From: Desulfobacterales bacterium | GTDB taxonomy: Bacteria > Desulfobacterota > Desulfobacteria > Desulfobacterales > UBA5616 | Reading direction: 5' to 3' | Length of the DNA: 64,000 nt | Assembly: GCA_046483495.1 (NCBI GenBank) | Contig: JAWODC010000049.1 | Coordinates: 31,019 to 95,018 of the forward strand | Shown: piece after piece, positions 1 through 63,094 of the stretch | Position numbering within the stretch: the stretch's first letter is position 1 | Layout: every line of letters begins with the position of its first letter | The notes under the pieces: generated by a model | Told to the model about the DNA's origin: nothing | The model's database searches: none | The model's input: only the letters and a program-made list of their open reading frames with translations | Made by a program: the position numbers and the translations under genes

Positions 1-1215
1 ATTGTATATGTACTCGAATCCTTCTTCCGACAGCGGACTGCCCGTGGACAAGACGGCTCGAAGGTGAGCCGGATCGTATTCCCGTCCGGGAAATATTCCC
101 GTATTCTGCAGCGCGTTGATGTACCCCGCGCTCACGCCCATGATGGAAATACGCTCTTCCTGCACCATTCGCCAAAGCGTGTCGGGCGTCGGGTAAAACG
201 GATTTCCATCATAAAGCACCACGGCGGCCCCCACTGCAAGCGAACTCACCAGCCAGTTCCACATCATCCACCCGCAGGTGGTATAATAAAAAATGATATC
301 GTCCTTTTTTAGATCCGTATGCAGCATCAACTCCTTTAAATGGTTGATCAGCACGCCGCCTGCGCCCTGTACCATGCACTTGGGAAGTCCTGTGGTTCCG
401 GAGGAATACATGATGTAAAGGGGATGTTCGAACGGCAGCTGTTCACATGCGAGCTCGGCGTCGGCAAAATCGTCAATAAACGTCTCATAAACCAACGCAT
501 TGGGAATTTGGCCGATATCCAACGATGTGCCGGTATAGGGGACGACAACGACCGTTTCAATGGACGGCAGCTCTTTTATAATGCCGGAAATTTTTTCGAG
601 GGAGTCGAACCGCTTTCCTTTAAACAGGTATCCATCCGCCGTGAAAAGCAGTTTCGGCCGAATCTGAGAAAATCGATCCAGAACGCCCTTGATGCCGAAA
701 TCCGGGGAACAGGACGACCAGACGGCGCCGATGCTTGTTGCGGCGAGCATGGCAACGACCGTCTCCGGTATATTCGGCATGAAGCCCACAACACGGTCAC
801 CGGGCGTAATCCCAGCGGATTTCAGTGAAGCCGCGAGCCGGGAGACCGCCTCGTAAAGCTCGGCATACGTCATCCGGAACGGCGGATCGACTTCATTTTT
901 GAAGATAAGAGCCGTGCGGCCGTCCCGATACCGCAGCAGATTTTCAGCGAAATTAAGGCGGGCCCCGCCGAACCACTTGGCCCCCGGCATCTTTTTTTCA
1001 TCATCGACAACCGACTGAAAGGGTCGAGACGCAATGATGCCGGAAAAATCCCACATTTCCGACCAGAACGGGGAAATGTGATTGACCGACCACTCCCAAA
1101 GCTCTTCATAGGAGGTCAGGGTCATGTTATATCGGGCGTTCACGCGCTGCATAAAGGCATGCATGTTTGAAGCCGCTGCTTCCTCGGCGGAAGGCATCCA
1201 TAAGCACTTGGCCAT
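1..1215 (-). CDS. aacS: acetoacetyl-CoA synthetase (acetoacetate-CoA ligase), N-terminal ~405 codons; 3' end lies beyond the left window edge
   Basis: Absent from the ORF track because it runs off the edge. Hand translation of the minus strand from ATG 1215..1213 (GGGAGGAG just upstream) gives MAKCLWMPSAEEAAASNMHAFMQRVNARYNMTLTSYEELWEWSVNHISPFWSEMWDF... It carries the AMP-binding box YIMYSSGTTGLPK, and the N-terminal pattern is typical of acetoacetate-CoA ligases. Confidence 0.75.
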   Translation of the reverse strand, partial: MAKCLWMPSAEEAAASNMHAFMQRVNARYNMTLTSYEELWEWSVNHISPFWSEMWDFSGIIASRPFQSVVDDEKKMPGAKWFGGARLNFAENLLRYRDGRTALIFKNEVDPPFRMTYAELYEAVSRLAASLKSAGITPGDRVVGFMPNIPETVVAMLAATSIGAVWSSCSPDFGIKGVLDRFSQIRPKLLFTADGYLFKGKRFDSLEKISGIIKELPSIETVVVVPYTGTSLDIGQIPNALVYETFIDDFADAELACEQLPFEHPLYIMYSSGTTGLPKCMVQGAGGVLINHLKELMLHTDLKKDDIIFYYTTCGWMMWNWLVSSLAVGAAVVLYDGNPFYPTPDTLWRMVQEERISIMGVSAGYINALQNTGIFPGREYDPAHLRAVLSTGSPLSEEGFEYIYN

Positions 1216-5719: not shown

Positions 5720-6868
5720 TTGGACTTCGATCTTACCCGAGAACAAGACATGATCCGGAAAGAAGTTCGGAAATTTGCTGAAGCCGTTATCACTCCTGCG
5801 GCAGCCGAACTTGATGAAAAAGAGATGTTTTCATCCGATCTCACCCTGCAAATGGGCGGAATCGGCCTATTCGGGATGGTTGTTCCCGAGGCCTACGGCG
5901 GGCAGGAAATGGATTACCTTTCCTACATCATTGCCGTCGAGGAGGTCGCACGGGTGGATGGATCACAGGCAGCGACCATCGCGGCGGCCAATTCTCTGGG
6001 AATCGGTCCCATATGGATGTACGGAACCGAATCACAGAAACGCAGGTACCTTCCCAAGCTGTGCCGCGGTGAAGGGCTATGGGGATTCGGTCTTACGGAG
6101 CCCTCGGCCGGGTCGGATGCGGGCGGCAGCACCACCACGGCGGTTCGCGACGGCCGCCAATGGGTGCTGAACGGTTCGAAAATATTCATCACCAATGCCG
6201 CATGCGACCTCTCGATGGGCGTTACGGTTCAGGCCGTCACCGGAAAGCGCCCGAACGGAAAACCGGAATACACGTGTTTTCTTTTGGAGCACGGCTCACC
6301 GGGATTTACGAGCGTTCCAATGAAGGGCAAGATGATGTGGCGTGCCTCCAATACGGCACAATTGTATTTTGACAATGTGCGGATTCCGGAGGAAAATATC
6401 CTTGGAAACGTCGGGGATGGATTTCACCAGATGCTCGAAACCCTTGACGGGGGCAGACTGTCCATCGGGGCCATGGGACTCGGAGGCGCCCAGGGGGCTT
6501 ACGAATCGGCGCTGGCATACGCCAAATCCCGCGTGCAGTTCGGACAACCCATTTGTAAATTTCAAGCCGTGGCATTCAAGCTTTCCGATTGCGCCCTTGA
6601 AATCGAATGCGCCAGGAACGTGCTGTACAAGGCATGCTGGTTGAGAGACAAAAAGCGGCCCTTTGGAAAAATCGCCGCCATGGCGAAGCTGTATTGCTCG
6701 GAAGCCATGGGACGCGTGGTCAATCATGCGGTTCAGATTCATGGCGGCTATGGTCTCTTTCGGGATTATCATGTGGAACGATTCTACCGGGACCAGAAAC
6801 TTCTGGATATTGGAGAAGGAACTTCGGAAGTGCAGCGGATCGTGATTGCACGGCACATCGGCTGCTAA
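5720..6868 (+). CDS. acyl-CoA dehydrogenase (short/branched-chain type)
   Basis: TTG start preceded by AGAGAGGTGA. 382 aa ACAD fold: GLTEPSAGSDAGG, a C-terminal YRDQKLLDIGEGTSEVQRIVIARHI. Confidence 0.85.
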   Translation: MDFDLTREQDMIRKEVRKFAEAVITPAAAELDEKEMFSSDLTLQMGGIGLFGMVVPEAYGGQEMDYLSYIIAVEEVARVDGSQAATIAAANSLGIGPIWMYGTESQKRRYLPKLCRGEGLWGFGLTEPSAGSDAGGSTTTAVRDGRQWVLNGSKIFITNAACDLSMGVTVQAVTGKRPNGKPEYTCFLLEHGSPGFTSVPMKGKMMWRASNTAQLYFDNVRIPEENILGNVGDGFHQMLETLDGGRLSIGAMGLGGAQGAYESALAYAKSRVQFGQPICKFQAVAFKLSDCALEIECARNVLYKACWLRDKKRPFGKIAAMAKLYCSEAMGRVVNHAVQIHGGYGLFRDYHVERFYRDQKLLDIGEGTSEVQRIVIARHIGC

Positions 6869-6884
6869 TACACGTGGAGGTAAA

Positions 6885-7523
6885 ATGGACAAGAATAACC
6901 ATAAGCCCCATATCAATGTCGACTATTTCGAGGATTTAACCGGCGAGGTTTCAAAACCCGCCGCCGAACCCGCTCAAGCAATCGGTGAACGGATCAGCAC
7001 CCTCAGAAAGGAAAAGGGCATGTCTCTCGACGAATTGTCACACCTTTCGGGGTTCGATGTCGATTTTTTGTCGGATATTGAAAAAAGCCGGGTGCAGCCG
7101 CAGTTGGGCACCGTAATAAAGCTGTCTAAGGCCCTGGACGAGGCGTTTTCCCGTATTCTTTCAGACGTGGGAGATCAGTTGTACTCCATCTCTCGAAAAG
7201 GTGACGCCAAACCTGTTGCCGGTTCCACTTCTCGACAGGGGAAAAAACATCTCTACACTTACAAAGGCCTTGCCCCCGAAGTCAAAGGGCGGCACATGGA
7301 AGCCGTGTTGGTGAGGCTGGAAGAAGGCAGGGATGAAGCGGTCTCCGTACACCAGGGAGAGGAATTCGTTTATGTACTGGAAGGTTGCGTTTATGTGAAA
7401 CTCGGCGATGAGGAATTCGAGCTGGCCCCCGGCGACAGCATCTACTATCTTTCCACCATTCCGCACCTGCTTTCAGCCGTAAGTGAAAAAGCCCTCATAT
7501 TGGCGGTTATCTATATCGGTTGA
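6885..7523 (+). CDS. XRE-family HTH regulator with cupin domain (second copy, inside the operon)
   Basis: ORF 6846..7523 trimmed to ATG 6885 (GGAGG at 6876..6880). HTH: MSLDELSHLSGFDVDFLSDIEKSRVQPQLGTVIKLSKAL. Cupin: GEEFVYVLEGCVYVKLGDEEFELAPGDSIYY. Confidence 0.8.
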   Translation: MDKNNHKPHINVDYFEDLTGEVSKPAAEPAQAIGERISTLRKEKGMSLDELSHLSGFDVDFLSDIEKSRVQPQLGTVIKLSKALDEAFSRILSDVGDQLYSISRKGDAKPVAGSTSRQGKKHLYTYKGLAPEVKGRHMEAVLVRLEEGRDEAVSVHQGEEFVYVLEGCVYVKLGDEEFELAPGDSIYYLSTIPHLLSAVSEKALILAVIYIG

Positions 7524-7565
7524 ATGTCCGAGTGGTCAACAGATAAGGGGATTGGAGGCAAACCG

Positions 7566-8747
7566 ATGGATTTTGAACTGAGTCCTGAAATTGAAGCGGT
7601 GCAAAAAGAGGCGCGCCGGTTTGCGATAAAAGAAATTTTGCCCGGAACCGGTGAAGATGTGTTCAAGCGGGACCTGGTATCCAAAATGGGTGCTCTGGGA
7701 TTTTTCGGATGCGCTTTTCCGGTTTCATTCGGCGGATCGGATCTCGGCTTTCTGGCGCATTCAGTGGTATGCGAGGAAATCTCCCGGGCGGATTCCGGGC
7801 TGCGTTCGCTGTTTAATTTACAGGCTGCTACAGTGGCCTACACCATCATGGAGTGGGGCTCGCCCGGCGTTCGGAATCACTATGTAAAGGATCTCGTCCT
7901 GGCAAAAAAACTGGGGTGCACCTGCTTCTCTGAGCCGAACGCCGGATCGGATTTGGCGTCAATGGAAACGCTCGTTGAAGACAAGGGGGATCACTATCTG
8001 ATCAATGGATCGAAAACATGGATCTCCAACGGCACCGTGGCCGATATCGCCATTGTATATGCAACCCATGATAAAAGCCTTCAACATAAGGGAATCTGTG
8101 CGCTTGTCGTTGAAACCGATCAGCCGGGGTGGTCGGCTCGTGAAACGCCGAAATTGGGAGACAGGTCCTCTCCGATTGCTGAGATTCATTTGCACAACGT
8201 AAAAGCACCCAAGGAAAATCTGCTGGGGGAATGGGGCGGGGGCTTCAAAGTGGCGATGACGGCGCTCGACAGGGGGCGGATCAGTGTGTCCAGCGGGGCA
8301 GTGGGGCTGGCCCAGGCCTGTATCGACAGTTCGGTCGAATATGCCAACAGGAGGATGCAGTTCGGAAAACCGATCAGCCGTTATCAACTCGTAAAAGGCG
8401 GAATCGCCGAAATGGTGACCTACACTGAAGCAGCACGGCTGATGGTGAGGAAGGGCGCCTGGCTGAATGACCAGGACCTTCCGTTTACCCGTGAAATCGC
8501 CATGGCGAAATATTTTGCCGGTGAAACCGTTGTCAAGGCAGCGGGGCTGGCCATGGAAATTCACGGCGGAATGGGGTATTCTCTGGAATTGCCGGTCGAG
8601 AAGTATTACCGGGATTCAAAGTTATACCAGATTGGAGAAGGCACGGCGAATATCATGCGGCTGCTCATTGCGGATGATGCATTGAACCTGAAAAAAGCCA
8701 ACCGGAAACGCCTTCATGTACCGAGTGAATTTAGAAATCTCCAGTAG
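7566..8747 (+). CDS. acyl-CoA dehydrogenase (second paralog)
   Basis: ORF 7524..8747 trimmed to ATG 7566 (MDFELSPEIEAVQKEARRF, GGAGG upstream). FSEPNAGSDLASM and YRDSKLYQIGEGTANIMRLLIA. Confidence 0.85.
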   Translation: MDFELSPEIEAVQKEARRFAIKEILPGTGEDVFKRDLVSKMGALGFFGCAFPVSFGGSDLGFLAHSVVCEEISRADSGLRSLFNLQAATVAYTIMEWGSPGVRNHYVKDLVLAKKLGCTCFSEPNAGSDLASMETLVEDKGDHYLINGSKTWISNGTVADIAIVYATHDKSLQHKGICALVVETDQPGWSARETPKLGDRSSPIAEIHLHNVKAPKENLLGEWGGGFKVAMTALDRGRISVSSGAVGLAQACIDSSVEYANRRMQFGKPISRYQLVKGGIAEMVTYTEAARLMVRKGAWLNDQDLPFTREIAMAKYFAGETVVKAAGLAMEIHGGMGYSLELPVEKYYRDSKLYQIGEGTANIMRLLIADDALNLKKANRKRLHVPSEFRNLQ

Positions 8748-15952: not shown

Positions 15953-16561
15953 CTAATCAAAGGCCATATGCGTTTTCCACACTTCCCAGACTTTGCCGAC
16001 AAGGTCCGGACCCGGTTTTAAGGTAATCTTTCCCGGTTTCCATCCGGAGGGGGTTGCTTCCGTGCCTTTGCTGTTTCTAACGTGTTGAAAAGCTTGTATC
16101 TGGCGGATTGATTCGCTTACATTCCGACCCACGGGAGGCGTCAGTACTTCGTACCCCTGGATGACGCCGTCGGGATCGATAATAAATCTTCCCCGGGTTT
16201 CTACACCGGCATCTTCATCGAATACACCAAAGACTTTGCCGACCTTTCCGCCGGCGTCGGACAGCATGGCAAAAGGGACGCCCCCTTCAACCATTTTGGA
16301 CAATTCATTATCATTCCACATTTTGTGGACAAATACACTGTCGATGCTCATGGAAAGAATTTCCACACCCAGATTTTGAAACTCCAGGTATTTTTCGGCA
16401 ACTGCCGAAATTTCTGTTGCTCAGACAAATGTAAAATCACCGGGATAAAAACAAAGCACTACCCATTTGCCCAGGTATTCTGAAAGTTTCACGGAAATGA
16501 ACTTGCCCTGCCGGTATGCCGGAGCGGCGAAATCCGGCGCTTTTTTGCCGACTTGTATCAT
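15953..16561 (-). CDS. selenocysteine-containing peroxiredoxin (2-Cys Prx/AhpC family); TGA 16423..16421 decoded as Sec
   Basis: Track ORFs 16421..16714 and 15953..16366 are one frame interrupted only by TGA: [16 protein letters not shown] versus the Prx box FTFVCPTE. ATG 16561 ([11 protein letters not shown]) lies 9 nt after AAGGAG. An alternative ATG at 16672 lies 5 nt after GGAGG. A SECIS-like hairpin starts 10 nt after the TGA. Confidence 0.8.
16393..16410 (-). other. candidate bacterial SECIS hairpin
   Basis: The RNA reads UGA-GCAACAGAAA-UUUCGGCA-GU-UGCCGAAA. The arms are perfectly complementary (6-7 bp usable stem) with GU at the apex, beginning 10 nt 3' of the UGA. Confidence 0.6.
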
Positions 16562-16692
16562 GGGTGGGATCTCCTTTAGGTTTACGGGTTCTTGAACACC
16601 CTTCTCCTCTGCCGCTTCCCCGACCGGGCCTCCGGTGGGACGTGCGCAGCCGACTTCCATCTCTTCGCCCATATTTTCCTCCATAATGAAGG

Positions 16693-16741
16693 TTTGAGAT
16701 ATAATAATAAACACTATCTCAAATCAGACGGCATTTTTCAA
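16693..16741 (-). promoter_or_regulatory. candidate promoter with overlapping 9-bp inverted-repeat operator upstream of the peroxiredoxin
   Basis: Minus strand: TTGAAA (16741..16736), 17 nt, GATAGT (16718..16713). Perfect inverted repeat TTTGAGATA (16693..16701) / TATCTCAAA (16715..16723) around an AT-rich 13-nt core TAATAATAAACAC. Confidence 0.35.
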
Positions 16742-20105: not shown

Positions 20106-20188
20106 GTAGTGTCCATTCAGAAATAGGCACTTTCGTGAACCCGGAAATCGATTTTAAATGGAAAAAAAGCATTACCAGGAGTACCCTT

Positions 20189-21124
20189 ATGGCGGCTGAC
20201 ATACCCTTCGTACAGGAATTTGAATTCCAATATGAAAGAATTGAACGCCTCAGCCCGTTGATTCGAAGGATCGTGGCCGACAATCCGAATTTCTTTTCAT
20301 TTTTCGGAACCAATACGTACATTATCGGGCAGGGAGAGGTCGCATTGATCGACCCGGGTCCCGACCTCCCGAAACACATTGACGCGATTGTCAAGGGGTT
20401 GGCGGGTGAGGTCGTTACACACATTTTTGTCACGCATACGCATTTTGACCATTGGCCTGCATTTAAATCGCTGCAAGCCGCTTTCGGGGCAAAGACGTAT
20501 GGGTATGCCGGTGAAGCAGAAGAAGGCCCGGACCAGGGGCTTGACCTCATGGAATTCCGCGATTTCGCCAATCAGGAACGTTTCGAAATGACGGGTTTCA
20601 CTCCGGACATTCATGTCGAGCACGGTGATGTCATAACCGGCAACGGGTGGTCGGTGGAATGTGTTTTTACACCGGGACATGCATCGAATCACATGTGTTA
20701 CCAGCTTCGCGAAGAAAAAGCCCTGTTCAGCGGGGATCACGTCATGGGTTGGTCGACAAGCGTCATATCGCCTCCTTCGGGTAATATGGAAAATTATATG
20801 AGCAGTCTGGATTTGCTGCTGCAGCGGAATGACCGCCGGTATTGGCCGGCCCACGGTCCCGGAATCACGGATACGAAGCATTTTGTGAGGACTTTCATTG
20901 CGCACCGGCAGGAACGCGAGGAGCAGATCCTGGATCAACTGAAAAGGGGCGTCAATACAATATCCGCAATGGTGTCCGATATGTACTCCGATGTTCCCGA
21001 TTTCCTTCATCCGGCCGCCGAACGGTCGGTGCTGGCGGCGATCATCTACATGATAAAAAAGGGATTCATCACCTGTAAAGGCGACGTGTCCGTTCATTCC
21101 AAGTTCCATTTAACACAATTTTGA
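20189..21124 (+). CDS. MBL-fold metallo-hydrolase
   Basis: ORF 20135..21124 trimmed to ATG 20189 (AGGAG 8 nt upstream). Metal-binding box FVTHTHFDHW, then TPGHASNH. Confidence 0.8.
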   Translation: MAADIPFVQEFEFQYERIERLSPLIRRIVADNPNFFSFFGTNTYIIGQGEVALIDPGPDLPKHIDAIVKGLAGEVVTHIFVTHTHFDHWPAFKSLQAAFGAKTYGYAGEAEEGPDQGLDLMEFRDFANQERFEMTGFTPDIHVEHGDVITGNGWSVECVFTPGHASNHMCYQLREEKALFSGDHVMGWSTSVISPPSGNMENYMSSLDLLLQRNDRRYWPAHGPGITDTKHFVRTFIAHRQEREEQILDQLKRGVNTISAMVSDMYSDVPDFLHPAAERSVLAAIIYMIKKGFITCKGDVSVHSKFHLTQF

Positions 21125-21160
21125 TTCACTACGGGCAATTCCAAAAAAGGAGTCTGTGAC

Positions 21161-21682
21161 ATGAAAGAAGTTCCTGAATATGAAAACTATCCAGTCAGTG
21201 AAGCCGAAATGGGCAAGCGATTTAAGAATTGGACCCAGGCTCTGGCGGACCAGATGGCGGTGCTTTACCGGGTGGGGAAGGAAATCGGGGGAGAAAAATT
21301 TGTAGACAGGCTGAAGGAGGAGTATTTCAAAATCGGACAGGAAAGAGCCCGCGCCTTGATGGCCCTTACCGGGACCACAAGGGAGGATTATAAAAACTGT
21401 TCGGGCGGCTTGCCGAATATCTGCAATCTGATCGACGATGCCATGGCGAATTTCTGGGACGGCTACATTGAAAATTCGGAAACGGCATTCGAGAAGGAAA
21501 TCAAAACCTGTCCGGTTGTCAAGCAGTGGTCCAATGAACCGGAAATCTGCGATGTGTTGTTGCGCGAATTCGTCAAAGGCGTGGCGCATGAACTGAATCC
21601 GAATTACCACACCGATGGGTTCAGCAAGCTGCTCGTATCCGGAGACGACTGCTGCCGGTATCGCCTCGAACTGAAGGCTTAA
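21161..21682 (+). CDS. L-2-amino-thiazoline-4-carboxylic acid (ATC) hydrolase-like family protein
   Basis: The C-terminal pattern TCPVVKQW...ICDVLLREFVKGVAHELNPNYHTDGFSKLLVSGDDCCRYRLE parallels the clearer family member at 37623..38099. Confidence 0.45.
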   Translation: MKEVPEYENYPVSEAEMGKRFKNWTQALADQMAVLYRVGKEIGGEKFVDRLKEEYFKIGQERARALMALTGTTREDYKNCSGGLPNICNLIDDAMANFWDGYIENSETAFEKEIKTCPVVKQWSNEPEICDVLLREFVKGVAHELNPNYHTDGFSKLLVSGDDCCRYRLELKA

Positions 21683-21791
21683 GCAGCAGTCTTGCCGGAG
21701 GCGACGCTGCTCTGCAACCATCTACAACCAAGTGCCGGTTCAAAATAAAGCCGGTGCTGATCACTGGATGCTCGTTTTTGTCGCGCTCCGA

Positions 21792-29957: not shown

Positions 29958-30106
29958 ATCCCGTTTCGTCTCGCCCGTCCCGCTTCGTGTGCCCAAACCG
30001 CTCCGAACTTCAAGATAAAAGGGGATTGTTGACATGATAAATCACCGCTAGGCCCTTGATTAAGCCGGATTCGGTCTTACCTCTTTAAAAAAAGGAGGTG
30101 TGTATC

Positions 30107-31156
30107 ATGAATCACGTCATCGTACTGCTGATTATGTCCATGCTGGGAATTATCGCCTTTAGTTCATGTGCGTCGGCCGATGTAAAAACGAAAACGGCCA
30201 CGTTTGCGGGCGGTTGCTTCTGGTGTATGGAAAAACCCTTTGAAAAACTCGATGGTGTTGTCTCGGTGGTTTCCGGATATACGGGGGGAAAAACGGAAAG
30301 CCCCACTTACGAAGAGGTTTCATCAGGTTCGACCGGGCATGCGGAAGCCGTTCAAATCATATATGATCCTTCTCGAATCAGTTATGGTAAGCTGCTGGAA
30401 GTATTCTGGCGTCAAATCGATCCCACGGATGCCGGCGGCCAGTTCGCCGACCGCGGAACCCAGTACCGTTCTGAGATTTTTTACCATGATGATGAGCAGC
30501 GAAGGCTTGCTGAAACATCCAAACAGGTTCTTTCGGAAAGCGGGCGTTTCGACAAGCCTATCGTAACGAACATCACCCCGGCCGGGCCTTTTTACAAAGC
30601 CGAGGGTTACCATCAGGAGTATTACAAACATCATCCGGTTCGCTACCGGACGTACCGGTCCCATTCCGGAAGGGAATCCTTTTTGGAGAAAGCCTGGAAT
30701 AATGATGAGACAATCTTGAGCGAAACCGCATCGAAATCAAACCTGAAGCAAAGGTTAACGCCGATGCAGTACCGGGTAACGCAGGAAAACGGCACCGAAC
30801 CCCCGTTTGACAATGCTTATTGGGACAATAAAAAAGAGGGTATTTACGTGGACATCGTGTCCAATGAGCCCCTGTTCAGTTCCACGGACAAGTTTGAATC
30901 CGGTACGGGATGGCCGAGTTTCACCAAGCCCTTGGAGCCCGAAAATATTCTAGAAAAAGAGGATCGGTTCCTCTTTACCGTCCGGACGGAAGTGCGCAGC
31001 AAAAAGGGAGATTCCCATCTGGGGCACGTCTTCGACGACGGCCCTCCCCCCACCGGCCTGCGATACTGCATCAACTCGGCAGCCCTTCGCTTCATTCCGA
31101 AAAACGATTTGGAAAAAGAAGGATTCGGCCGGTATAAAACGCTTTTCAACGACTAA
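30107..31156 (+). CDS. msrAB: bifunctional peptide-methionine sulfoxide reductase MsrA/MsrB with signal peptide
   Basis: AGGAGG upstream of ATG 30107. Signal-like [24 protein letters not shown]. MsrA box [11 protein letters not shown]. MsrB GWPSF...[10 protein letters not shown]...RYCINS. Confidence 0.9.
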
Positions 31157-34830: not shown

Positions 34831-35649
34831 CTATTTCTTAGCCCTAAAGCGCTTAAAATCAGGCGGTCTTTTTTCAAGAAATGCCGAGACCCCTTCGTGG
34901 GACTCGTCTGTTTTGTAGAATAACTCCAGGGTTCGCTTGGACATGGTGTTGATGCCGTTGACATGGTCGGTATCCGCATTGAAGGAGGCCTTGAGAAAAG
35001 CCAGTGCGTAAGGCGATTTCTGGAGCAATTCACGGCACCATCGATTCACTTCGTCCTCGAGTTCGGACGGGGGCACGACCTTATTGACGAGTCCCATCTC
35101 AAGGGCTTCGGTTGCCGAATACTGCCGGCAGAGGTACCAGATTTCTCGAGCCTTCTTTTCGCCGACGATACGGGAAAGAAACACGGTGCCGTAACCGGCA
35201 TCGAAACTGCCCACCCGCGGACCCGCCTGGCCGAACCGTGCCGTTTCAGATGCAATGGTCAAGTCGCATACCACGTGCAGCACATGGCCCCCGCCGACGG
35301 CATATCCGTTAACCATCGCAATGACCGGTTTTGGGATACTTCGTATGGTATGGATCACTTGGTCATGGGCATCGAGAAGATCGAACAGCGCCCCGCCTTT
35401 TTCGTATCCGTCTTCATCTTTTATCTTCTGGTCTCCACCCGTGCAAAACGCTTTGTCACCCTTTCCGGTGACCACGACAACACCCACGGCGTGGTCCACC
35501 CACGCATTCCGAAGAGCGTCGTTCATTTCCTCGAGCGTCGATGCCGTAAAGGCATTGTATCGTTCAGGCCGGTTGATGGTTATTCGTGCGATTCCGCCGT
35601 CCTTTTCATATAAAATATCATTATAACTCACGATAGGCCTCCTTTTCAT
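34831..35649 (-). CDS. crotonase-superfamily enzyme, MenB (1,4-dihydroxy-2-naphthoyl-CoA synthase)-like
   Basis: [23 protein letters not shown]...[19 protein letters not shown]...[18 protein letters not shown] is collinear with MenB-type sequences. Confidence 0.6.
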
Positions 35650-37622: not shown

Positions 37623-38099
37623 TCATGTTTCGTCTTTAATCTCGTATCTGAAATCGCAATGATCCGCACCCTCCATGATGGTTTGGGTACGGCTGAATCG
37701 GATATTGGGATTGAACCCTTCTGCGATGGAGGCATCCCGTCCGCATGAGAGAATGTACCCGAACTCCTCCATACCCAAACTGCGGTACATTTCCGCGAAT
37801 TTGCATCGTGTGAAGTTAACCGCGATTTTATCGGGAGCGGCTTCGACGATTTCGTATTTCAGGGCGCCCCCTTGACCGGCCACGGCAAGGGCCTTTTGGA
37901 AATCTTCGAGGCCGTCCCCTTCGGCGATGCTTCTAAGCATTTCACCCGCCTCGATCGACAGCGCCCGAATCACCTCCCCGGCAACTTCGAGAGCGGGCTT
38001 ACGGCCGAATTTTTGCATAAAGGCCCTGATCAGCGGAACGGCTATACGGGCCTCGATTTCACGCCTGGTAATCAAAGGCACACTGTTGATGTCCTGCAT
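37623..38099 (-). CDS. L-2-amino-thiazoline-4-carboxylic acid (ATC) hydrolase family protein
   Basis: FTRCKFAEMYRSLGMEEFGYILSCGRDASIAEGFNPNIRFSRTQTIMEGADHCDFRYE matches the family hallmark pattern. GGAGGA upstream. Confidence 0.65.
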   Translation of the reverse strand: MQDINSVPLITRREIEARIAVPLIRAFMQKFGRKPALEVAGEVIRALSIEAGEMLRSIAEGDGLEDFQKALAVAGQGGALKYEIVEAAPDKIAVNFTRCKFAEMYRSLGMEEFGYILSCGRDASIAEGFNPNIRFSRTQTIMEGADHCDFRYEIKDET

Positions 38100-38115
38100 C
38101 CTTTTTCCTCCGTTT

Positions 38116-38472
38116 TTAATATTCCTCTTTGTTTCGGACGGCCTTATTCCCGGTAACCACCAAATCTTTCAATACGTTGTTCAGGTCCAGGGGTTCCAGC
38201 GTGATGTCCTTTTCGACCCGGGTTTGACAGAAGAGGCCCGGACGGCCGTTTATTCTGCCGGAGCATTTCCCGCAGACGCCCAAGGTACAGGCCGCATGGT
38301 CGTAATACGCCAACGTGCCGTCCTGATTGTGATAAATGTAATCGAGTACATCAAGGGCACTCATCCCCTCTTGGTAGGGCACTTCATAGGTGCGGTAGTA
38401 GGGCGCCTTGTCCCTTATCGGATCGAACCTGAATACCGTTGCCTGAATTGTATGTTCACCCATAGCGACCAC
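38116..38472 (-). CDS. [2Fe-2S] ferredoxin-like protein equal to the N-terminal domain only of SdhB/FrdB
   Basis: ACTLGVCGKCSGRINGRPGLFC is exactly Cx4Cx2Cx11C. FRFDPIRDKAPYYRTYEVPYQEGMSALDVLDYI resembles the SdhB N-terminus. The probable true start is ATG 38463. The 4Fe-4S/3Fe-4S half is absent. Confidence 0.7.
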   Translation of the reverse strand: MVAMGEHTIQATVFRFDPIRDKAPYYRTYEVPYQEGMSALDVLDYIYHNQDGTLAYYDHAACTLGVCGKCSGRINGRPGLFCQTRVEKDITLEPLDLNNVLKDLVVTGNKAVRNKEEY

Positions 38473-38557
38473 CGTTCGGTTGCCGGCAAGACCCGGCAGT
38501 GTTCAGCCCTCATAATGAAAGCGATGCTTCAGCTACAAGGTCCTGATGATTTTCAAA

Positions 38558-40327
38558 TCAATGCTTGCCGCCGGTATCGGAATGGGAAAGCATCATTTCC
38601 TTAATGAAATCCATGTAAGCAGTAACGCCTTTCGGCGGGGTCATGCTTGTTACGGCCACCGGAACATGGTGCACCTCGGAGCCGCTTCGCGTGCGTTTTG
38701 CGATACTTTCCTTGAGCCAATTGTCATTGTCGGTATGCGGATAATCTTCTCGAAAATGCACACCCCGGCTTTCCGTTCGCAAAAGGGCGCTTTCTGCGGC
38801 TACCGCAAGAAGTTCGACCATGTTTTCCAGTTCAAGGGCGTCGATCCATTCTTTATTGTATCGCCTGTTTTCAGTTGTAACGGCGATATGTGGTATCGCG
38901 TCTTTTTTCAGGCGATTCAAAAAACGTATGAAAGTGATCAGCTCTTCCCGAACCCGGATGGGGCCCAAATAGGTGTGTGCGGCAGTTTGAACGGATCCCC
39001 TGATTTCCTGTGGCGAAACGCCCTTCACCCGACTCAGGGGAGCAGCGGCCTTTTCTTCCAGGGCGGCAAAGGCATCATCTGCGGGCCTGCCGGTATCGGA
39101 TTTGCCGGTATAGGCTGCGGCATTTTCTCCGGCATCCGCACCGTGAACCAGCATTTCAGTAATCGCTGCAAACACACGATTGGCGCCGAATGCACCCAGC
39201 GTACATTCTCCGGCTGCAAAAAGTCCGGGCAAGGCAGTTTCAAAATGTTCGTTAACCTTGATGCCGCCTTCGAAATATTCGACGGCCGGACCGACCTCGA
39301 CCGGCTCGTTGTCCCTTAATTTTCGGCCCCATTCAGAAAGGTCCAGTGCCTTATACTTCCATTTTGGAAAAATCATGGAGGCAACGAATTCGATATCCTC
39401 CCATGGTGCATCGCCCCGGCTGTAATGAATGCCGCCGTTGGCGAATCCTCTTCCTGCTCGAATCTCTTTTGCCGTGGCATGAGAGATGAAGCTTTTGTTC
39501 CATTCGGTTGACGCTCCGATCTTGACGACAACGGGATCGTTAGATTTTAAAAATTCATCCCCGTCACAATTGGTTAATCGGACATCCACCAGCATGCTCA
39601 GGATATAGGGAGCGATGCTGCCCGCCCAGATGGGAGGATTCAGAAAAACATTGCAGCAAAACGTAATGAATTCCATGTTTCCAAGATCCGCTCCGGCACG
39701 GTGGGCCATCGCAATACCTTCCCCCGACAAATCCCTCATGCCCGTAGTGGGTCGGAACGCTTTATGCCAACCGCCGGTAGCCATAACCACGGCCTTGCAC
39801 CGGAACCGGATAAAATCTCCGGATCGGATATCGATCCCCAACGCCCCTGCGACGGCGCCTTTTGCGGTGACCAGGTCGAATAGAAAAATGTCTTCCAGCA
39901 TTTGGATGCCTAAAGACCGCGCCTTTCTGAGCAGGGCATCCATGATACCCGTGCCGCTGGTGAAAATCATCCGCTCATCGCTCACTTTGATCTGAATTCC
40001 CCATTCGATCAGTTCCTGCAGGCATTGCGGCGCCTTTCGGATATACTGGTCGACGAGCTTCTGGTTGTTCAGAAAACAGCCTTGTGTGACGATGTCATTG
40101 AAAACTTTTTCCGGAGTGTCTTCGGGATCGCCGGCCAACCCGGGAATACGGCTCATGCTCGCGCCGTCCAGCGTGAAATCGGCACCCGCCATCGGAGTCG
40201 CCCCGCATCGGGCAAGAGGGCCCTTGCTCAAGAGCAGCACCTTCATCCCTTTCTCCGCGGCTGCTATAGCGGCCCTGAAACCGGCGCCGCCTCCCCCCAC
40301 CACCAATATATCGGTGTCGATTATCAC
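38558..40327 (-). CDS. FAD-dependent oxidoreductase, succinate dehydrogenase/fumarate reductase flavoprotein-like
   Basis: GTG start. DILVVGGGGAGFRAAIAAAEKG, VMATGGWHKAF and FAAGEC. At the Frd/Sdh MEFVQYHPTG position the ORF reads MEFITFCCNV. Confidence 0.75.
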   Translation of the reverse strand: MIIDTDILVVGGGGAGFRAAIAAAEKGMKVLLLSKGPLARCGATPMAGADFTLDGASMSRIPGLAGDPEDTPEKVFNDIVTQGCFLNNQKLVDQYIRKAPQCLQELIEWGIQIKVSDERMIFTSGTGIMDALLRKARSLGIQMLEDIFLFDLVTAKGAVAGALGIDIRSGDFIRFRCKAVVMATGGWHKAFRPTTGMRDLSGEGIAMAHRAGADLGNMEFITFCCNVFLNPPIWAGSIAPYILSMLVDVRLTNCDGDEFLKSNDPVVVKIGASTEWNKSFISHATAKEIRAGRGFANGGIHYSRGDAPWEDIEFVASMIFPKWKYKALDLSEWGRKLRDNEPVEVGPAVEYFEGGIKVNEHFETALPGLFAAGECTLGAFGANRVFAAITEMLVHGADAGENAAAYTGKSDTGRPADDAFAALEEKAAAPLSRVKGVSPQEIRGSVQTAAHTYLGPIRVREELITFIRFLNRLKKDAIPHIAVTTENRRYNKEWIDALELENMVELLAVAAESALLRTESRGVHFREDYPHTDNDNWLKESIAKRTRSGSEVHHVPVAVTSMTPPKGVTAYMDFIKEMMLSHSDTGGKH

Positions 40328-42289: not shown

Positions 42290-44353
42290 CTACAATGCCT
42301 CGACAGCGCCGATATCAGCGGATGAGTTCACCGGTCGTGAAACGCCAAGCTGATCGATCGGCTGCTGGGAAACACTGATGTCTTCTTCCCAAATGGAAAA
42401 GAAAATGTCATTGTTTTCGGGCAACAAACCCGACGATGGAAATAGATCCCTCCAGGCGCCGTCGCCGAGCAGTTCCGGACCCATTCCCAATATGTGCTCG
42501 TCCTCGAGGGCTGCATCGAGCTGATGCCAGAATTCGATATACGGATAATTTGCAAGCTCCTGCGTCCAGGTAATCGCCGGACCAAACCACTGAACATCGT
42601 CAAGCGTTAGCATCGGTTCGCCTGAAGGGTTCGTATAGGGCTGGGTTCCCACAGTTTCGCCGTCGGCATCGACGGTCTGTAAAAAGCTTTCAAAATGGGT
42701 TCTGAAATCGGCGGCAAAACCGGGAAGAGTGAAACAGCTCTCGATCCTGTCGAGTACAATGGATAGAAAGTTATCGATGCCGCCGAGCCGGATGTCGTAC
42801 TCGGCAAGGGTCTTGTTAATGATGTATGGTGAAGCAGGGGCCTGGTCGATGGCCCCGGCACCGGGTTGATAATACAAAATCGCGTAATCCGATGCGTCCA
42901 CCCCGGCGGAAAAGATCTCATTGGACCGGACAATTCCAGAGTCCAGATCGAGGACCTCGGCAATTTCCACGCCGCTTCCATCACCGCTTTTTGGAAAATG
43001 CCTGCGGCACAGGGATTCCCAACCCGGCTCACCCACCGGGACAAGGATCTGGCTGAAGTCGAGTGCGCCGATGCGGTTGTAACCCATGCTTTTAAAGTGC
43101 ATTAGGGATCCTGTAAAAATATCCTGAGCATATGCATCTCCGCCGATCTCGGAAACGGTGTTCCCGACGACCAATGAGTGGCCGATGGTGATCGTTTCGA
43201 CGGCGTGAGCATTTCCGATGGTTGCGGCAATGCCGCCGGCCAGATTGGGCTTGCTCAAATCATCGGTACGGGGCACGCCGTACGTTTCGTTCTGAACAAT
43301 CGTGCAGTTCTGAATGGACAAATTGCCGTTGGATATGTAAACGCCGCCGCCCCGCCAATATCCCATGGCCAAAAGAAAATCCGGCAGGCCGGGCGCCGGC
43401 TCGGCGAGGTTTTGGGCGATGGTGCTGTTCGTCAGTTGCAATGTTTTCCGATGACCGATGCCGCCGCCGTCCGAATAAACCCCGCCGCCGTAAGTGAACA
43501 ACGCACGGATGCGGTTTCCCGTGATCGAGCAACGGTCGATAACCGAAAACGTTTCCAGGTTTTCGGCCCCCCCGACAGAAAAAACCCCGCCCCCGGCTGC
43601 TCCTCCGCCTGAAACGGAATTTCCGCTGATGATGCAATTCTCCAGATCGACAATGTCGGCATAGAGCCCGCCGCCAAAGGCACCCCGATCTCTGGACGAA
43701 TCAAAATCGCCCTTGCAGGAGTTGCCGTAAATGCGGCAGTTCACCAGGCGTGCCGCTCCCCATACGGCAACACCGCCGCCGCGGGCCAGCGTCCAGGGCT
43801 GATTTTCATTTTCCGCCGATATGTCCTCTGCTACGCTTTTGCCCCCCGTAATCGACACATTTGCCATACAGAGGTCGCCATAAACAGCCAGCACACGGGC
43901 CGGATTGTCCTCGCCGCCGTTCCATGAAAGGGTGATGCCGGACGGCAGATCCGATGCATCGATGATGACGTTTTTTTGAGTATAAAGTGCGGACTTGCCG
44001 TAGTCCCTTTCGAAATAGCCCTCCAGGTAAGAGACCGGTCCGCTCGGCGTATCCCGCATGCCCATGACTTCACCTTTCAGCACCGAATGTTCTTCCCCGA
44101 CGATGGACAGTTCGATAACGCCGCCGTCCAGGTATTCCTCGAAACGTATGGGTTGATTTTCTTTTGCTGTATCGAGTGCAGAACGAAAGGTGATAATGCC
44201 TGAAGGCGGTTCGGCGCTGTCGTCGAGACTGTTGACAAAAATGGGATCAGGAGCGGCGGCCTTTCGGTCGCTTCCGCTATCTCCGAAACATCCCAAAAAC
44301 AATAGTACCGACAAAAAAACCATTGAGAAAATCGATCGTTTCATTTTCATCAT
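42290..44353 (-). CDS. secreted, probably lipid-anchored right-handed beta-helix repeat protein (choice-of-anchor-Q-like)
   Basis: Signal MMKMKRSIFSMVFLSVLLFLGC. Repeated G-rich beta-helix turns (GGGVAVWGAARLVNCRIYGNS, GGGLYADIVDLENCIISGNS, GGGVYSDGGG, GGGVYISNGNLSIQNCTIVQN). Confidence 0.65.
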   Translation of the reverse strand: MMKMKRSIFSMVFLSVLLFLGCFGDSGSDRKAAAPDPIFVNSLDDSAEPPSGIITFRSALDTAKENQPIRFEEYLDGGVIELSIVGEEHSVLKGEVMGMRDTPSGPVSYLEGYFERDYGKSALYTQKNVIIDASDLPSGITLSWNGGEDNPARVLAVYGDLCMANVSITGGKSVAEDISAENENQPWTLARGGGVAVWGAARLVNCRIYGNSCKGDFDSSRDRGAFGGGLYADIVDLENCIISGNSVSGGGAAGGGVFSVGGAENLETFSVIDRCSITGNRIRALFTYGGGVYSDGGGIGHRKTLQLTNSTIAQNLAEPAPGLPDFLLAMGYWRGGGVYISNGNLSIQNCTIVQNETYGVPRTDDLSKPNLAGGIAATIGNAHAVETITIGHSLVVGNTVSEIGGDAYAQDIFTGSLMHFKSMGYNRIGALDFSQILVPVGEPGWESLCRRHFPKSGDGSGVEIAEVLDLDSGIVRSNEIFSAGVDASDYAILYYQPGAGAIDQAPASPYIINKTLAEYDIRLGGIDNFLSIVLDRIESCFTLPGFAADFRTHFESFLQTVDADGETVGTQPYTNPSGEPMLTLDDVQWFGPAITWTQELANYPYIEFWHQLDAALEDEHILGMGPELLGDGAWRDLFPSSGLLPENNDIFFSIWEEDISVSQQPIDQLGVSRPVNSSADIGAVEAL

Positions 44354-44637: not shown

Positions 44638-45281
44638 CGGCGACCGATATAAAAACCCGACGCCTGAAAAGGGCCGCTTTTCAGATTTTCATCCTGGTTA
44701 TGCTCTCAAGTGTTTGTATCGGGGGCTATGCCGGCGTCCTTCATGTACTGAACCTGCCGTTTCGGCAGGTAAACGATAGCCTGCATCGAGAGGATGCCGC
44801 TGTCGATCTCGATATTCTCATTCCCGGCGGCACCTATATCGACGAAAACATGACCATCCGCGAGGTGATAAAGCTGCGGTTTGCCCGTCGCTTGCCGGCA
44901 GCCGAAAGAATTGCCGGACACCTGGTATCTCTGATTCCTGAAACCCTCCGTCACATGTTCAATGCCATCCTGTTTTTTTTCTGGTCCTTCGTTTACATGA
45001 CGTTCATTCGCGTATTCACCTTTCTTCGGTATAGTCGGGCCTTGGGCGCGAGCCTGGCCCTTGGAGGGTTCACCTATTTTTTTATGCCGGATTTCTCCCC
45101 GGGGCGACTGGATGATGCGGTTTTCATGACGGCGCCGCTTGGGGTCATCGGCGCTCCCGTTTTTTTCGTCCGGTGGAGGAGGAGAAAAACCAATAAGGCA
45201 AAAGCGTCTGAATCATTGGCTTTCACCAACCACGAAACCACCCGATGTGCCTTACGAAAGGAAAACCCCAATGAACACTGA
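44628..45281 (+). CDS. hypothetical membrane protein
   Basis: Hydrophobic segments AAFQIFILVMLSSVCIGGYAGVL, FNAILFFFWSFVYMTFIRVFTFL, ALGASLALGGFTYFF and VFMTAPLGVIGAPVFFV. Overlaps the next gene by 11 nt. No clear SD. Confidence 0.4.
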   Translation: MQPTATDIKTRRLKRAAFQIFILVMLSSVCIGGYAGVLHVLNLPFRQVNDSLHREDAAVDLDILIPGGTYIDENMTIREVIKLRFARRLPAAERIAGHLVSLIPETLRHMFNAILFFFWSFVYMTFIRVFTFLRYSRALGASLALGGFTYFFMPDFSPGRLDDAVFMTAPLGVIGAPVFFVRWRRRKTNKAKASESLAFTNHETTRCALRKENPNEH

Positions 45282-47646
45282 AAACATTGACTTCATTCAA
45301 TCTGAAATCGGGAAACACCCTGTGGATGCCGCCGGTTCACCGGTGGGTGTCGTCCGTATGGATCCCGAAAAATCCTATGCCGGCGTGGGGGATCTGCTGC
45401 GGTCGTATATTACGCAAAATGATGCCGAAGCCTGGGAGAAAATTTGTAAAAAAATCGATTACACCTTTGCAAATCTGGATCTTGCCCTATCCGCCCTGGC
45501 TGAGGCAACCGGATTTATCGGCGATGTCACCAGCCGGGTGGATTGTGGGCAGAAACTGCTGTTTAAGCCGAACCTGGTCAATCCGAGCAATATCGATCCC
45601 CAGACCAATGAACCGGGATTAGGCAGTACCGCCTGTACGGAATGGCCGTTTATGGCCGCCTTGATGCGCTGGTTTTACGAGAAATGCGGAATTTCCTACT
45701 ACCGGATGTGCATCGGGGATGCCGCCACCGCCATGTCTGCCGTTGCCGGCCAGTATACGGCCATAAACAATCGCAGGATAACGACCGAGGCGGTTATTGA
45801 GGGAAAGTCCGAAGACTTTCACGGGGGGTGGGGATTTTATTTCGTTCGAAAATATCTGAGCGACAGGTGCAGCAAAGAAAGCGGCGGCAACCCCATGAAT
45901 GGATTCGAAGAGAGCGTTTCAGGGACTTACATTCCGCCGGGAAAAGCCGCCGATAAGCTGATGGTGTATGATCTAAACCGCATTTTCGATGATCCGTCGA
46001 AGGGCCGGCGCATCGGCGTCAAGGACGGCGTGAACTATGATTCCATTATGCTCCACAAGGTGATCGTCGGCGGCGATCCTGAAGACGCAAACGATCGTGA
46101 GGATTATCCCGGCTGCATCCTTGTGAATGTCCCGAAGTTCAAGGTTCATGTCATTGCCCTGTTTACAAACGTCATCAAGAACCTCGGCATTGGTCTGTAT
46201 CCCATGCAATACGCAAGCCGGGGAGCATTCAAGTGGGATTACAGCGCGCCCCACCGGCCTGTCCCCGGAATGAAGGCCGGTATACCTCACCAGGTGTGGG
46301 TGTCGGAATTGGACGAGCATACGCTGCTGCCCAAGGTGGACGACATGGGGAATGCTGTTCTTCAGAAAACCGGCGGCATAACGGCGACCATGATCGACAT
46401 CATCAGGGCGGTAAAGGACCAGCAGGTTTACATGATTCATGTCGTGGATGCGGTTGAAGGCATCAATATCGACCATCAGGGCATTGGTGCAGGGACAAAA
46501 GAGCCGGAAGGCATGGTGTTTGCAGGGATCGATCCGGTCGCCACCGACCTGCTGAGTGCTCGGTATATGTTCGGTAATACGCCGCTTGAAGAATCGCTGT
46601 TATCCGGAGTGGCGGACGGATACGGCGGGCTGTTTCCCCAATCGGTCATTATCCCTGTTGTGGAGGGAAGCACTATCGTTTCGAAAAATGGGTATGACTG
46701 TCCCATTTCCAGGGATATTTGTTTTAAAAGGTCCAAAGAAAGGGGTTTGGGCGATACCGACTACCATGTTATCGGACGAGACGGCATCACGGATAAACCC
46801 CTGGTTTCGGTGCAGGGCCATTTGGGTATTGATGATGACGGCCGGTTTTCGAACATCATCACGAACACCCTCTATTTTGACATGTTCAAAATGCCCTGGG
46901 ATCTGCAGAAAACGGCTCTGGCGTACTTTGAAGCCATTGACCGACTTTCAGGTTCCGGATTGAAACAGGATTTTCTCTCCGCCTTCGATGAAGATAAAAA
47001 CGGCATCGTAACTTACGAGGAGATGGGGAAAAAAGGCGAATGGACGTTTCTATTGCATGCGGGGGGCGAAATGCTTGCCGGCATGGCCGGACTTCTCGAA
47101 TCCCTTAGAAATTCGTTCAAATGGACAATTGCCCGAATGAAAGTATCGGATGCTGCATACAATGTAAACGGCAGTGATTTTATGAGGGCATTCGGCTACG
47201 GGACAACCTGCACGGTCGCCTTTCAAATGTCGATGGCGGAAGAGGAATCTCCGGATCCGTTTATTCCGGGACTGACGTGGGGCAAGGGCAAGTGGCCGGG
47301 ATTCGAACTGGCCAAATATGCATCCATTGGTTTTGCTCTCTTCGGCCGGGAATTTCCCGGTGTGGTTTCCCAACCAAGCCTTTACTACAGCGTCTTGCGG
47401 TATGCGGATCTAACGCAGAACCAAGGAAAATTTCTGGGAGGTGAAAGGCTGCTCGCCGATCCCGAGGATATTCATCGGTATGTTGCATCCGCCGGAAAAG
47501 ACCATGCGATGCTTGATTTTACCCTGTATGTACCTGAAGGATACGATATGATGTCGGGAATCCGCCTGCCGAATGTGACATCCACAACGGATAGTGCCAT
47601 TATTTTTACGGCGAGTTTCAACGGGGGAAGAGAAATCTGGGCATGA
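45271..47646 (+). CDS. large DUF362 domain protein with ~300-aa C-terminal extension carrying an EF-hand-type calcium-binding loop
   Basis: ORF 45139..47646 trimmed to ATG 45271. DUF362 blocks: GQKLLFKPNLVNP, VPKFKVHVIALFTNVIKNLGIGLYP, IHVVDAVEGI, GIDPVATDLLSARYMFG. EF loop DEDKNGIVTYEE at 46987..47022. Confidence 0.65.
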   Translation: MNTENIDFIQSEIGKHPVDAAGSPVGVVRMDPEKSYAGVGDLLRSYITQNDAEAWEKICKKIDYTFANLDLALSALAEATGFIGDVTSRVDCGQKLLFKPNLVNPSNIDPQTNEPGLGSTACTEWPFMAALMRWFYEKCGISYYRMCIGDAATAMSAVAGQYTAINNRRITTEAVIEGKSEDFHGGWGFYFVRKYLSDRCSKESGGNPMNGFEESVSGTYIPPGKAADKLMVYDLNRIFDDPSKGRRIGVKDGVNYDSIMLHKVIVGGDPEDANDREDYPGCILVNVPKFKVHVIALFTNVIKNLGIGLYPMQYASRGAFKWDYSAPHRPVPGMKAGIPHQVWVSELDEHTLLPKVDDMGNAVLQKTGGITATMIDIIRAVKDQQVYMIHVVDAVEGINIDHQGIGAGTKEPEGMVFAGIDPVATDLLSARYMFGNTPLEESLLSGVADGYGGLFPQSVIIPVVEGSTIVSKNGYDCPISRDICFKRSKERGLGDTDYHVIGRDGITDKPLVSVQGHLGIDDDGRFSNIITNTLYFDMFKMPWDLQKTALAYFEAIDRLSGSGLKQDFLSAFDEDKNGIVTYEEMGKKGEWTFLLHAGGEMLAGMAGLLESLRNSFKWTIARMKVSDAAYNVNGSDFMRAFGYGTTCTVAFQMSMAEEESPDPFIPGLTWGKGKWPGFELAKYASIGFALFGREFPGVVSQPSLYYSVLRYADLTQNQGKFLGGERLLADPEDIHRYVASAGKDHAMLDFTLYVPEGYDMMSGIRLPNVTSTTDSAIIFTASFNGGREIWA

Positions 47647-57734: not shown

Positions 57735-57764
57735 TGTCTCCTTTCGATTTCGTATCCGGGCAGG

Positions 57765-59006: not shown

Positions 59007-59018
59007 GATGGCCTCCTT

Positions 59019-60293: not shown

Positions 60294-60779
60294 GGCTCCC
60301 CCCTGAATGTGTGAAGGTGTAAAAATGCCGACGGAAGCCCTTGGGGTTTTTCCCGCCGGATGAAAAACCGGAAAACGTGTTCGTGCATATGGGCAAGGTA
60401 AATGAGATGCATGAAATGTTCGAGCCGACCTGCAAAAAATGGAAATCCGGGTCTATGGTAGGAATTCTCCCGAACTTCCAGGAGCGTCTTTTGCGTGAAT
60501 GTTCTCAGATGGTAATTACAATCCGGGTTGCGGCACTCTCGAAAAGAAGGAATCGTAGAAAAACCCAAACCCGAATTATTTTTTTTCCTATATCGGAGAA
60601 TAACGGGTGAGTCAAGCAGTGTTGACCGGTGCAGCCGGTTTCGTCCTTCTAAAAGGCCTGAAACCAGCGGCCGAGCATTTTTTTGTTTGTAACTTTGTCG
60701 AAAGTTTTATAGGGTCCTTCATTCCGGACTCTAAAAGACAATTGGGCGCATACAGAATACGGTTAAAGGAATTTTATAC

Positions 60780-62207: not shown

Positions 62208-62276
62208 TCTCAATGGTATCCATCCGGACATGAAAAATTTCCGGATGAAAACCAACTGGTAAAAGGAGGTTGATCA

Positions 62277-63068: not shown

Positions 63069-63094
63069 ATGCTGTTTTTGTGATTGTGGAACTC

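Follow-up and report, generated by a model that had tools for sequence, protein, structure and literature searches.

An intact PrxU-type selenoperoxiredoxin gene predicted in a Desulfobacterales-like contig, with a conserved N-terminal cysteine arm and a candidate internal start

The locus considered here raises the question of whether two neighbouring open reading frame fragments on the minus strand, listed at 16421..16714 and 15953..16366, are the debris of a broken peroxiredoxin gene or the two halves of a single gene in which a stop codon is read as selenocysteine (Sec), and, if the latter, where its product begins and by what chemistry it might operate. The fragments lie within a 64-kb stretch of DNA (the window), and translation of its letters leaves a single in-frame stop in the minus-strand frame 16714..15953, namely the TGA at 16423..16421. 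On that strand the codons read TTT ACA TTT GTC TGA GCA ACA GAA (F-T-F-V-stop-A-T-E, followed by I), and downstream of the TGA 155 sense codons run uninterrupted to the TAG at 15955..15953. When Cys is substituted for the stop, the Pfam domain AhpC-TSA spans the TGA (residues 4-135 of a 202-aa reading, E=1.2e-36) and is followed in the joined product by a match to 1-cysPrx_C; as the AhpC-TSA alignment runs across the TGA, the two listed fragments are halves of one domain. An earlier note on this DNA had taken the fragments for one gene broken solely by the TGA, and both the frame and the domain that bridges the break bear it out.

The family to which the joined product belongs can be named with some precision. 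The NCBIfam equivalog model NF040737 (peroxi_PrxU) matches it at 420.1 bits against a cut-off of 270 (E=2.4e-126), with residues 7-235 of the product laid on positions 2-232 of the 233 in the model, while the AhpC equivalog TIGR03137 is not passed (190.3 bits against a cut-off of 272). Membership in AhpC proper, or in the typical 2-Cys peroxiredoxins, is ruled out by that score together with the Sec codon in place of the peroxidatic Cys and a Thr (Thr207) in place of the resolving Cys, even though the fold family is shared. Searching a plasmid collection with tblastn located the type gene of the family, prxU, on the 809-kb megaplasmid of Peptoclostridium (Eubacterium) acidaminophilum DSM 3953, where RefSeq carries it as one 240-aa CDS across its own TGA (WP_084481301.1); identity to the present gene is 68% over the full length, 1-239, in 240 aligned positions. 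The 120 closest public proteins are 67-89% identical to the product, and most homologs have 236-240 residues. Two reviews, with reference to Sohling et al. 2001 (Biol Chem 382:979), count a peroxiredoxin with the motif TxxU among the bacterial selenoproteins that have been verified by experiment. We are thus highly confident that the locus carries an intact prxU ortholog, the gene for the Sec-containing, thioredoxin-dependent peroxiredoxin first described in E. acidaminophilum. The gene belongs to a known family and is unexceptional in such an anaerobe; the earlier note had likewise not claimed a new family, on which the equivalog model and the characterised P. acidaminophilum member agree.

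The TGA (16421..16423, minus strand) occupies the peroxidatic position of a PxxxTxxU motif, PGDFTFV-U-ATE, and comparison at the DNA level indicates that the family has kept it there. We fetched the DNA of the 80 best homologs among the GTDB species representatives (74-84% identity, the best of them 84%), in which the tblastn matches span residues 1-239, and the homologous codon was TGA in 80 of 80. Most of these genomes belong to Thermodesulfobacteriota/Desulfobacterales, and the remainder include metagenome-assembled genomes labelled Spirochaetota, Caldithrix, KSB1, Cloacimonadota and others. A few relatives carry TGC or TGT at this codon (loci L081-L084, e.g. Desulfoferula mesophila; proteins P0025, P0048, P0077 and P0109), and such Sec/Cys pairs among homologs are typical of selenoprotein families.

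If the TGA is decoded as Sec, an RNA element would be expected behind it, and a hairpin does stand at the appropriate place. The sequence UUUCGGCAGUUGCCGAAA at 16410..16393 (minus strand), 10 nt 3' of the UGA, can be drawn as UUUCGGC(A)-GU-(U)GCCGAAA with the GU apex at 16402..16401, such that the helix begins at +11 and the loop lies at +18/+19. Considered by itself the hairpin is unremarkable: the thermodynamic fold has 7 bp and an AGUU tetraloop at -14.4 kcal/mol (z=-1.9 versus shuffles), which is not significant for a single sequence, and the eighth A-U pair is missing from the fold since nearest-neighbour models do not permit a 2-nt GU loop. The ungapped alignment of 81 sequences is considerably more informative. 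Pairing in its 8-bp helix (columns 17-24/27-34) extends to 99.2% of cells, whereas sliding the helix by 1-3 nt leaves 39-69% of cells paired, and none of 500 column shuffles matched the observed helix values. Five of the eight pairs display compensatory changes (e.g. GC 48, AU 24, UA 6 and CG 2 in one, and UA 55, CG 18 and AU 5 in another), and the eighth pair, the one lost from the computed fold, covaries as well (A-U 44, G-C 35, G-U 1 and no A-C in homologs). The apical G25 and U26 are invariant. The helix changes fall at synonymous third positions of Ser-Ala-Val-Ala-Glu and are therefore not forced by the protein. In the four Cys-form genes 5, 6, 6 and 8 of the 8 pairs are kept and the GU is gone in two, an apparent decay that runs in the expected direction in a small sample (n=4). 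The loop of the present gene also fits the rule for bacterial SECIS elements, by which the apical loop lies 16-37 nt from the UGA (PMC10778597). Among the curated families of Rfam the hairpin has no match, only chance-level hits being returned when the window was scanned at gathering thresholds and the hairpin at E<=10. We consider the hairpin to be a conserved RNA structure and a predicted SECIS element. The earlier note had placed the TGA at the peroxidatic position, had described this hairpin with its GU apex 10 nt past the TGA, and had concluded that the locus is one PrxU-type selenoprotein gene; these points have held up against the 80 homologous TGA codons and the Cys of some relatives, the covariation and invariant GU of the 81 sequences, and the NF040737 match and 68% identity to the type gene, respectively.

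Two other accounts of the TGA must be weighed against decoding as Sec. The gene could be a dead, two-fragment peroxiredoxin in which a Cys codon, TGC or TGT, has mutated to TGA, and indeed one nucleotide separates these codons and Cys-form relatives exist; however, we judge this very improbable, as it does not account for a TGA retained at the same codon in all 80 genome homologs across several phyla, for 155 codons past the TGA that are fully conserved with Pfam support, for compensatory changes in the hairpin behind it, or for the same TGA in the characterised P. acidaminophilum ortholog. The second account, that TGA simply encodes Trp or Gly in this organism, has the public databases on its side, where gene callers have assumed as much for most homologs: the residue at the Sec site in the 120 closest public proteins is W in 103, G in one and C in nine, while eight homologs fell outside the residue search pattern, seven through a nearby substitution and one, P0111, through lack of the segment. 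It is nonetheless hardly credible. TGA terminates 12 of the 33 family-supported genes in the window, which argues that the standard code is in use and that the TGA of prxU is a local recoding; the GC content (~52%) and gene content are typical of Desulfobacterales, and homologs carry Cys, not Trp, at the catalytic position. Moreover, most of the W and G calls stem from contigs 1-2 kb long, on which the choice of code by a gene caller is unreliable, and given a TGA in 80 of 80 genome loci they apparently reflect a switch to code 4 or 25 on the part of the gene callers.

Decoding as Sec thus stands as the preferred reading, and it has consequences for annotation. In most public metagenome PrxU proteins the Sec codon has been mistranslated as Trp, and the 217-aa NCBI protein P0111 lacks exactly the segment of the Sec codon (…KFVSV|TTEISAVAE…), a gap that appears to stem from an annotation splicing around the TGA and not from a genuine loss of sequence. 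The expectation that a gene of this kind would be mis-annotated is accordingly borne out in part: Trp stands at the site in 103 of the 120 closest homologs from metagenome collections, whereas RefSeq has prxU as one CDS. The present gene ought to be annotated as one CDS, 16672..15953 on the minus strand, with a Sec translation exception at codon 84, and not as fragments or a pseudogene.

The start implied by that CDS differs from the one first assigned. The earlier note had modelled a product of ~202 aa with Sec at residue 47; Sec is indeed residue 47 when counted from MIQVGKK, and that start is conserved, but the gene is 37 codons longer. The full product, with its start at ATG 16672..16670, is predicted from sequence to be 239 aa with Sec as residue 84 (CDS with stop, 15953..16672, minus strand). 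The start is preceded by a Shine-Dalgarno sequence, GGAGG, at 16678..16682, 5 nt upstream of the ATG, and further upstream by a weak promoter-like sequence, TTGAAA-17-TG-GATAGT at 16713..16741, that came from a consensus scan in which the regional count was not above shuffled expectation. The 37-codon extension (16562..16672, minus strand) is absent from ordinary peroxiredoxins and lies within both NF040737 and the RefSeq CDS. Across the family it opens with M-x-E-E-x-K-x-G-C-x-R-P; in the subclade of the present gene the motif is longer, running from G8-C9 to residue 19 (16651..16616, with the Cys9 codon at 16648..16646), and a variable acidic linker follows. Cys9 is invariant across homologs. 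A Shine-Dalgarno sequence at the first start was found in 67 of 82 homologs by scripted start choice, and in the others inspected it stood before an ATG located another four codons upstream. The residues of the motif do not vary, yet its third codon positions have an entropy of 1.5-1.96 bits, with Arg encoded by all six codons (84 distinct DNA sequences). Fixed residues combined with near-maximal third-position entropy are the mark of purifying selection on a protein, and the extension is therefore translated.

At the far end of the extension a second start is suggested by an internal ribosome-binding site, AGGAG at 16575..16571, which is separated by a 9-nt spacer from ATG 16561..16559 (the element as a whole at 16559..16575, minus strand); initiation at this ATG, which encodes Met38 of MIQVGKK, would give the 202-aa form with Sec47. 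Met38 is invariant among homologs, and a strong Shine-Dalgarno sequence, AGGAG(G), usually 8 nt upstream of it, is present in 79 of 82 prxU genes; when all ATG triplets of these loci are counted, the figure is 2.9%. The AGGAGG nucleotides are kept while the residues that they encode vary (KEV, KEE, EEV, QEG, PRE and others), and at this site the codon is invariably AAG for Lys and GAG for Glu, although GAA dominates for Glu elsewhere in the extension. An equivalent internal start in P. acidaminophilum would yield a 203-aa product. The original PrxU paper of 2001 reportedly gave the purified selenoprotein as 203 aa, roughly 22 kDa; if that was the purified form, the internal start would account for its size.

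Whether both starts are used then becomes the issue, and each could in principle be the only one. Were the 202-aa product from MIQVGKK the sole form, the upstream 37 codons would be an untranslated leader, as the strong, conserved Shine-Dalgarno sequence, the invariant ATG at Met38 and the agreement of the P. acidaminophilum equivalent (203 aa) with the reported size might lead one to suppose. This we regard as improbable, however, given an upstream motif that is fixed in its amino acids with third positions nearly random and Arg drawn from six codons, and given that the region possesses its own Shine-Dalgarno sequence and ATG, preceded at a short distance by stop codons, and has no stop between itself and the peroxiredoxin domain; NCBIfam and RefSeq both use the long form. 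Conversely, the 239-aa product could be the only one and the internal AGGAGG-ATG a relic of an ancestral start, a view to which the continuity of the long reading frame, the protein-level selection upon it and the long RefSeq CDS lend themselves. It is a rather unlikely view all the same, for a relic would decay within a highly variable linker, yet AGGAGG is found at -14..-9 in 79 of 82 genes against a background of 2.9%, Lys and Glu are fixed as AAG and GAG at the internal Shine-Dalgarno sequence in spite of the preference for GAA, and Met38 is invariant. Two conserved ribosome-binding sites in one frame thus probably signify two product forms, and we consider two in-frame isoforms (239 aa with Sec84, and 202 aa with Sec47) likely. 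The fuller proposition, that prxU genes are dual-start genes making both a 239-aa form with an N-terminal Cys arm, whose Cys would be a candidate resolving residue forming a selenenylsulfide with Sec84, and an armless 202-aa form from Met38, may be correct with about even probability. In the literature searched we found no description of a role for the N-terminal arm or of an internal start in prxU.

The need for an unusual resolving residue emerges from the active site. The joined product aligns to peroxiredoxin structures in the PDB over residues 40-228 (E down to 1e-48) and would adopt an AhpC/Prx1-type fold; alignment to characterised 2-Cys peroxiredoxins, the comparison by which the earlier note had suggested its reading be checked, places Sec at the peroxidatic position (PDB 4fh8 and relatives). 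In the same alignment to 4fh8 the place of the C-terminal resolving Cys is taken by Thr207 (codon 16052..16054, minus strand; EATPSGW versus EVCPAGW), and nearly all homologs have Thr or Ala there. Two invariant residues are specific to PrxU: Cys74 (LCFYPGD; codon 16451..16453, minus strand), which lies ten residues before Sec and is Phe in the PDB homolog and in ordinary peroxiredoxins, and Ala85 (codon 16418..16420, minus strand), directly after Sec, which is Pro in ordinary peroxiredoxins. With the canonical C-terminal resolving Cys missing, one of the family-specific cysteines, Cys9 or Cys74, most likely resolves Sec. An AlphaFold2 model of the Cys-form homolog P0048, built on a 90-sequence alignment, has a confident core, an N-terminal motif with pLDDT ~61-66 and a disordered linker below 50.

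On this basis a course of events may be sketched. The ribosome would meet the UGA at 16423..16421, Sec would be inserted, presumably in a SelB-dependent manner, and translation would continue to the TAG at 15953. Sec at the peroxidatic position (PGDFTFV-U-ATE) would reduce peroxides and be converted to a selenenic acid; the oxidised Sec could then be resolved by Cys9 on a flexible N-terminal arm or by Cys74, and the resulting Se-S bond would be reduced by thioredoxin, as the name of the PrxU family implies and as we infer for the present protein. The two conserved ribosome-binding sites in one frame would supply two forms, one of 239 aa that bears the Cys arm and one of 202 aa that lacks it. 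If the dual start is real, the decamer could combine 'self-resolving' and '1-Cys-like' subunits in adjustable proportions.

The window was searched for the machinery of such decoding. The tRNA scan found no tRNA gene in the 64-kb window, and consequently no tRNA-Sec there; selA, selB and selD were not found among the 40 window ORFs scanned, and no tRNA adjoins prxU in 55 related loci. A search of the window for in-frame TGAs flanked by long open stretches brought up no second selenoprotein gene, the candidates at 340..1170, 20135..21685, 37663..38604 and 62274..63431 being either spurious antisense-like frames or two neighbouring genes that share a frame. In one of these an MBL-fold hydrolase (20135..21124, plus strand) ends in TGA and a 173-aa frame that matches no family (21161..21682, plus strand) follows in the same frame 36 nt downstream; the read-through candidate reads as two separate genes, and a 203-aa ORF, again lacking a family match, overlaps it on the opposite strand. 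It is a reasonable inference from the intact, family-typical gene and its SECIS-like hairpin that the present organism decodes Sec, the machinery itself being assumed. At the Cys-form locus of Desulfoferula mesophila (L081 6061..6723), a 348-aa AIRS/AIRS_C gene of SelD-like size and domains lies 2.3 kb downstream of the peroxiredoxin, and the Cys-form loci L082 (4117..5553) and L084 (1053..2447) each adjoin a Lactamase_B and Rhodanese fusion that resembles persulfide dioxygenase.

Some further genes of the window deserve mention. A fused MsrA/MsrB at 30098..31156 (plus strand) has an N-terminal, signal-like hydrophobic segment and the active site GCFWC, which is the Cys form; a Sec form of MsrA is known in some relatives, and the window MsrA is not of that form. 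Genes of acyl-CoA metabolism typical of anaerobic degraders occur at 5720..8747 (plus strand), 34831..35649 (minus strand) and 56322..62207, and the set includes a glutaryl-CoA dehydrogenase of the Desulfococcus Acd type, a BadI/MenB-like crotonase, two family III CoA-transferases and two genes like the alpha subunit of ADP-forming acetate-CoA ligase. These genes and the relatives of prxU point to a Desulfobacterales-like host. Two large products, of 687 aa (42290..44353, minus strand) and 835 aa (45139..47646, plus strand), have no NCBIfam match at E<=1e-5.

As to what the gene signifies, prxU would mark the organism as a user of Sec with a selenium-dependent defence against peroxide, which is common in anaerobic sulfate-reducer-like bacteria and unsurprising here. 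What the analysis yields in addition applies to the family as a whole, namely a strongly conserved Cys-bearing arm at the N terminus of PrxU and, in the same frame, a further ribosome-binding site kept at the nucleotide level; together these constitute a testable hypothesis for the recycling of a selenoperoxiredoxin that does without the canonical resolving Cys.

Comparison with known systems places these features in perspective. With PrxU of P. acidaminophilum the present gene shares the position of Sec in PGDFTFV-U-ATE, a hairpin at equal distance (UUUCAGC-AGUU-GCUGAAA in that organism), the N-terminal x-G-C-A-R-P motif (PGCARP) and an internal AAGGAGG-ATG, the equivalent of Cys74, and the absence of the C-terminal resolving Cys. 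The hosts differ, in that GC is ~52% and the gene content Desulfobacterales-like here, whereas P. acidaminophilum is a Clostridium-like fermenter of amino acids; so does the setting, chromosomal-looking in the window and a megaplasmid in P. acidaminophilum, and so does the N-terminal motif, which is longer here in a variant typical of a Thermodesulfobacteriota-centred subclade. The hairpin has in common with SECIS elements of the E. coli fdhF type that it lies within the coding sequence directly 3' of the UGA, with a loop within 16-37 nt and a G-U apex, but its stem is short (7-8 bp), it has no evident bulged U and the Rfam models do not match it. Many prxU homologs have the loop GGUC, which is also the loop sequence of the E. 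coli fdhF SECIS. The typical 2-Cys peroxiredoxins of the AhpC/Prx1 group (PDB 4fh8, human Prx2 1qmv and Salmonella AhpC 1yep) belong to the same fold family and have the active-site motif PxxxTxxC, and the C-terminal region of PrxU resembles AhpC; unlike them, PrxU has Sec for the peroxidatic Cys, Ala for the Pro that follows it and Thr for the C-terminal resolving Cys, and it has an additional N-terminal Cys arm and Cys74. A mechanistic analogy to the proposed arm comes from an enzyme whose fold and chemistry are unrelated. In mammalian MsrB1 it is Cys4, on a flexible segment at the N terminus, that resolves the selenenic acid of Sec95, and the candidate likeness to PrxU would lie in just this placement of a resolving Cys on a flexible N-terminal arm.
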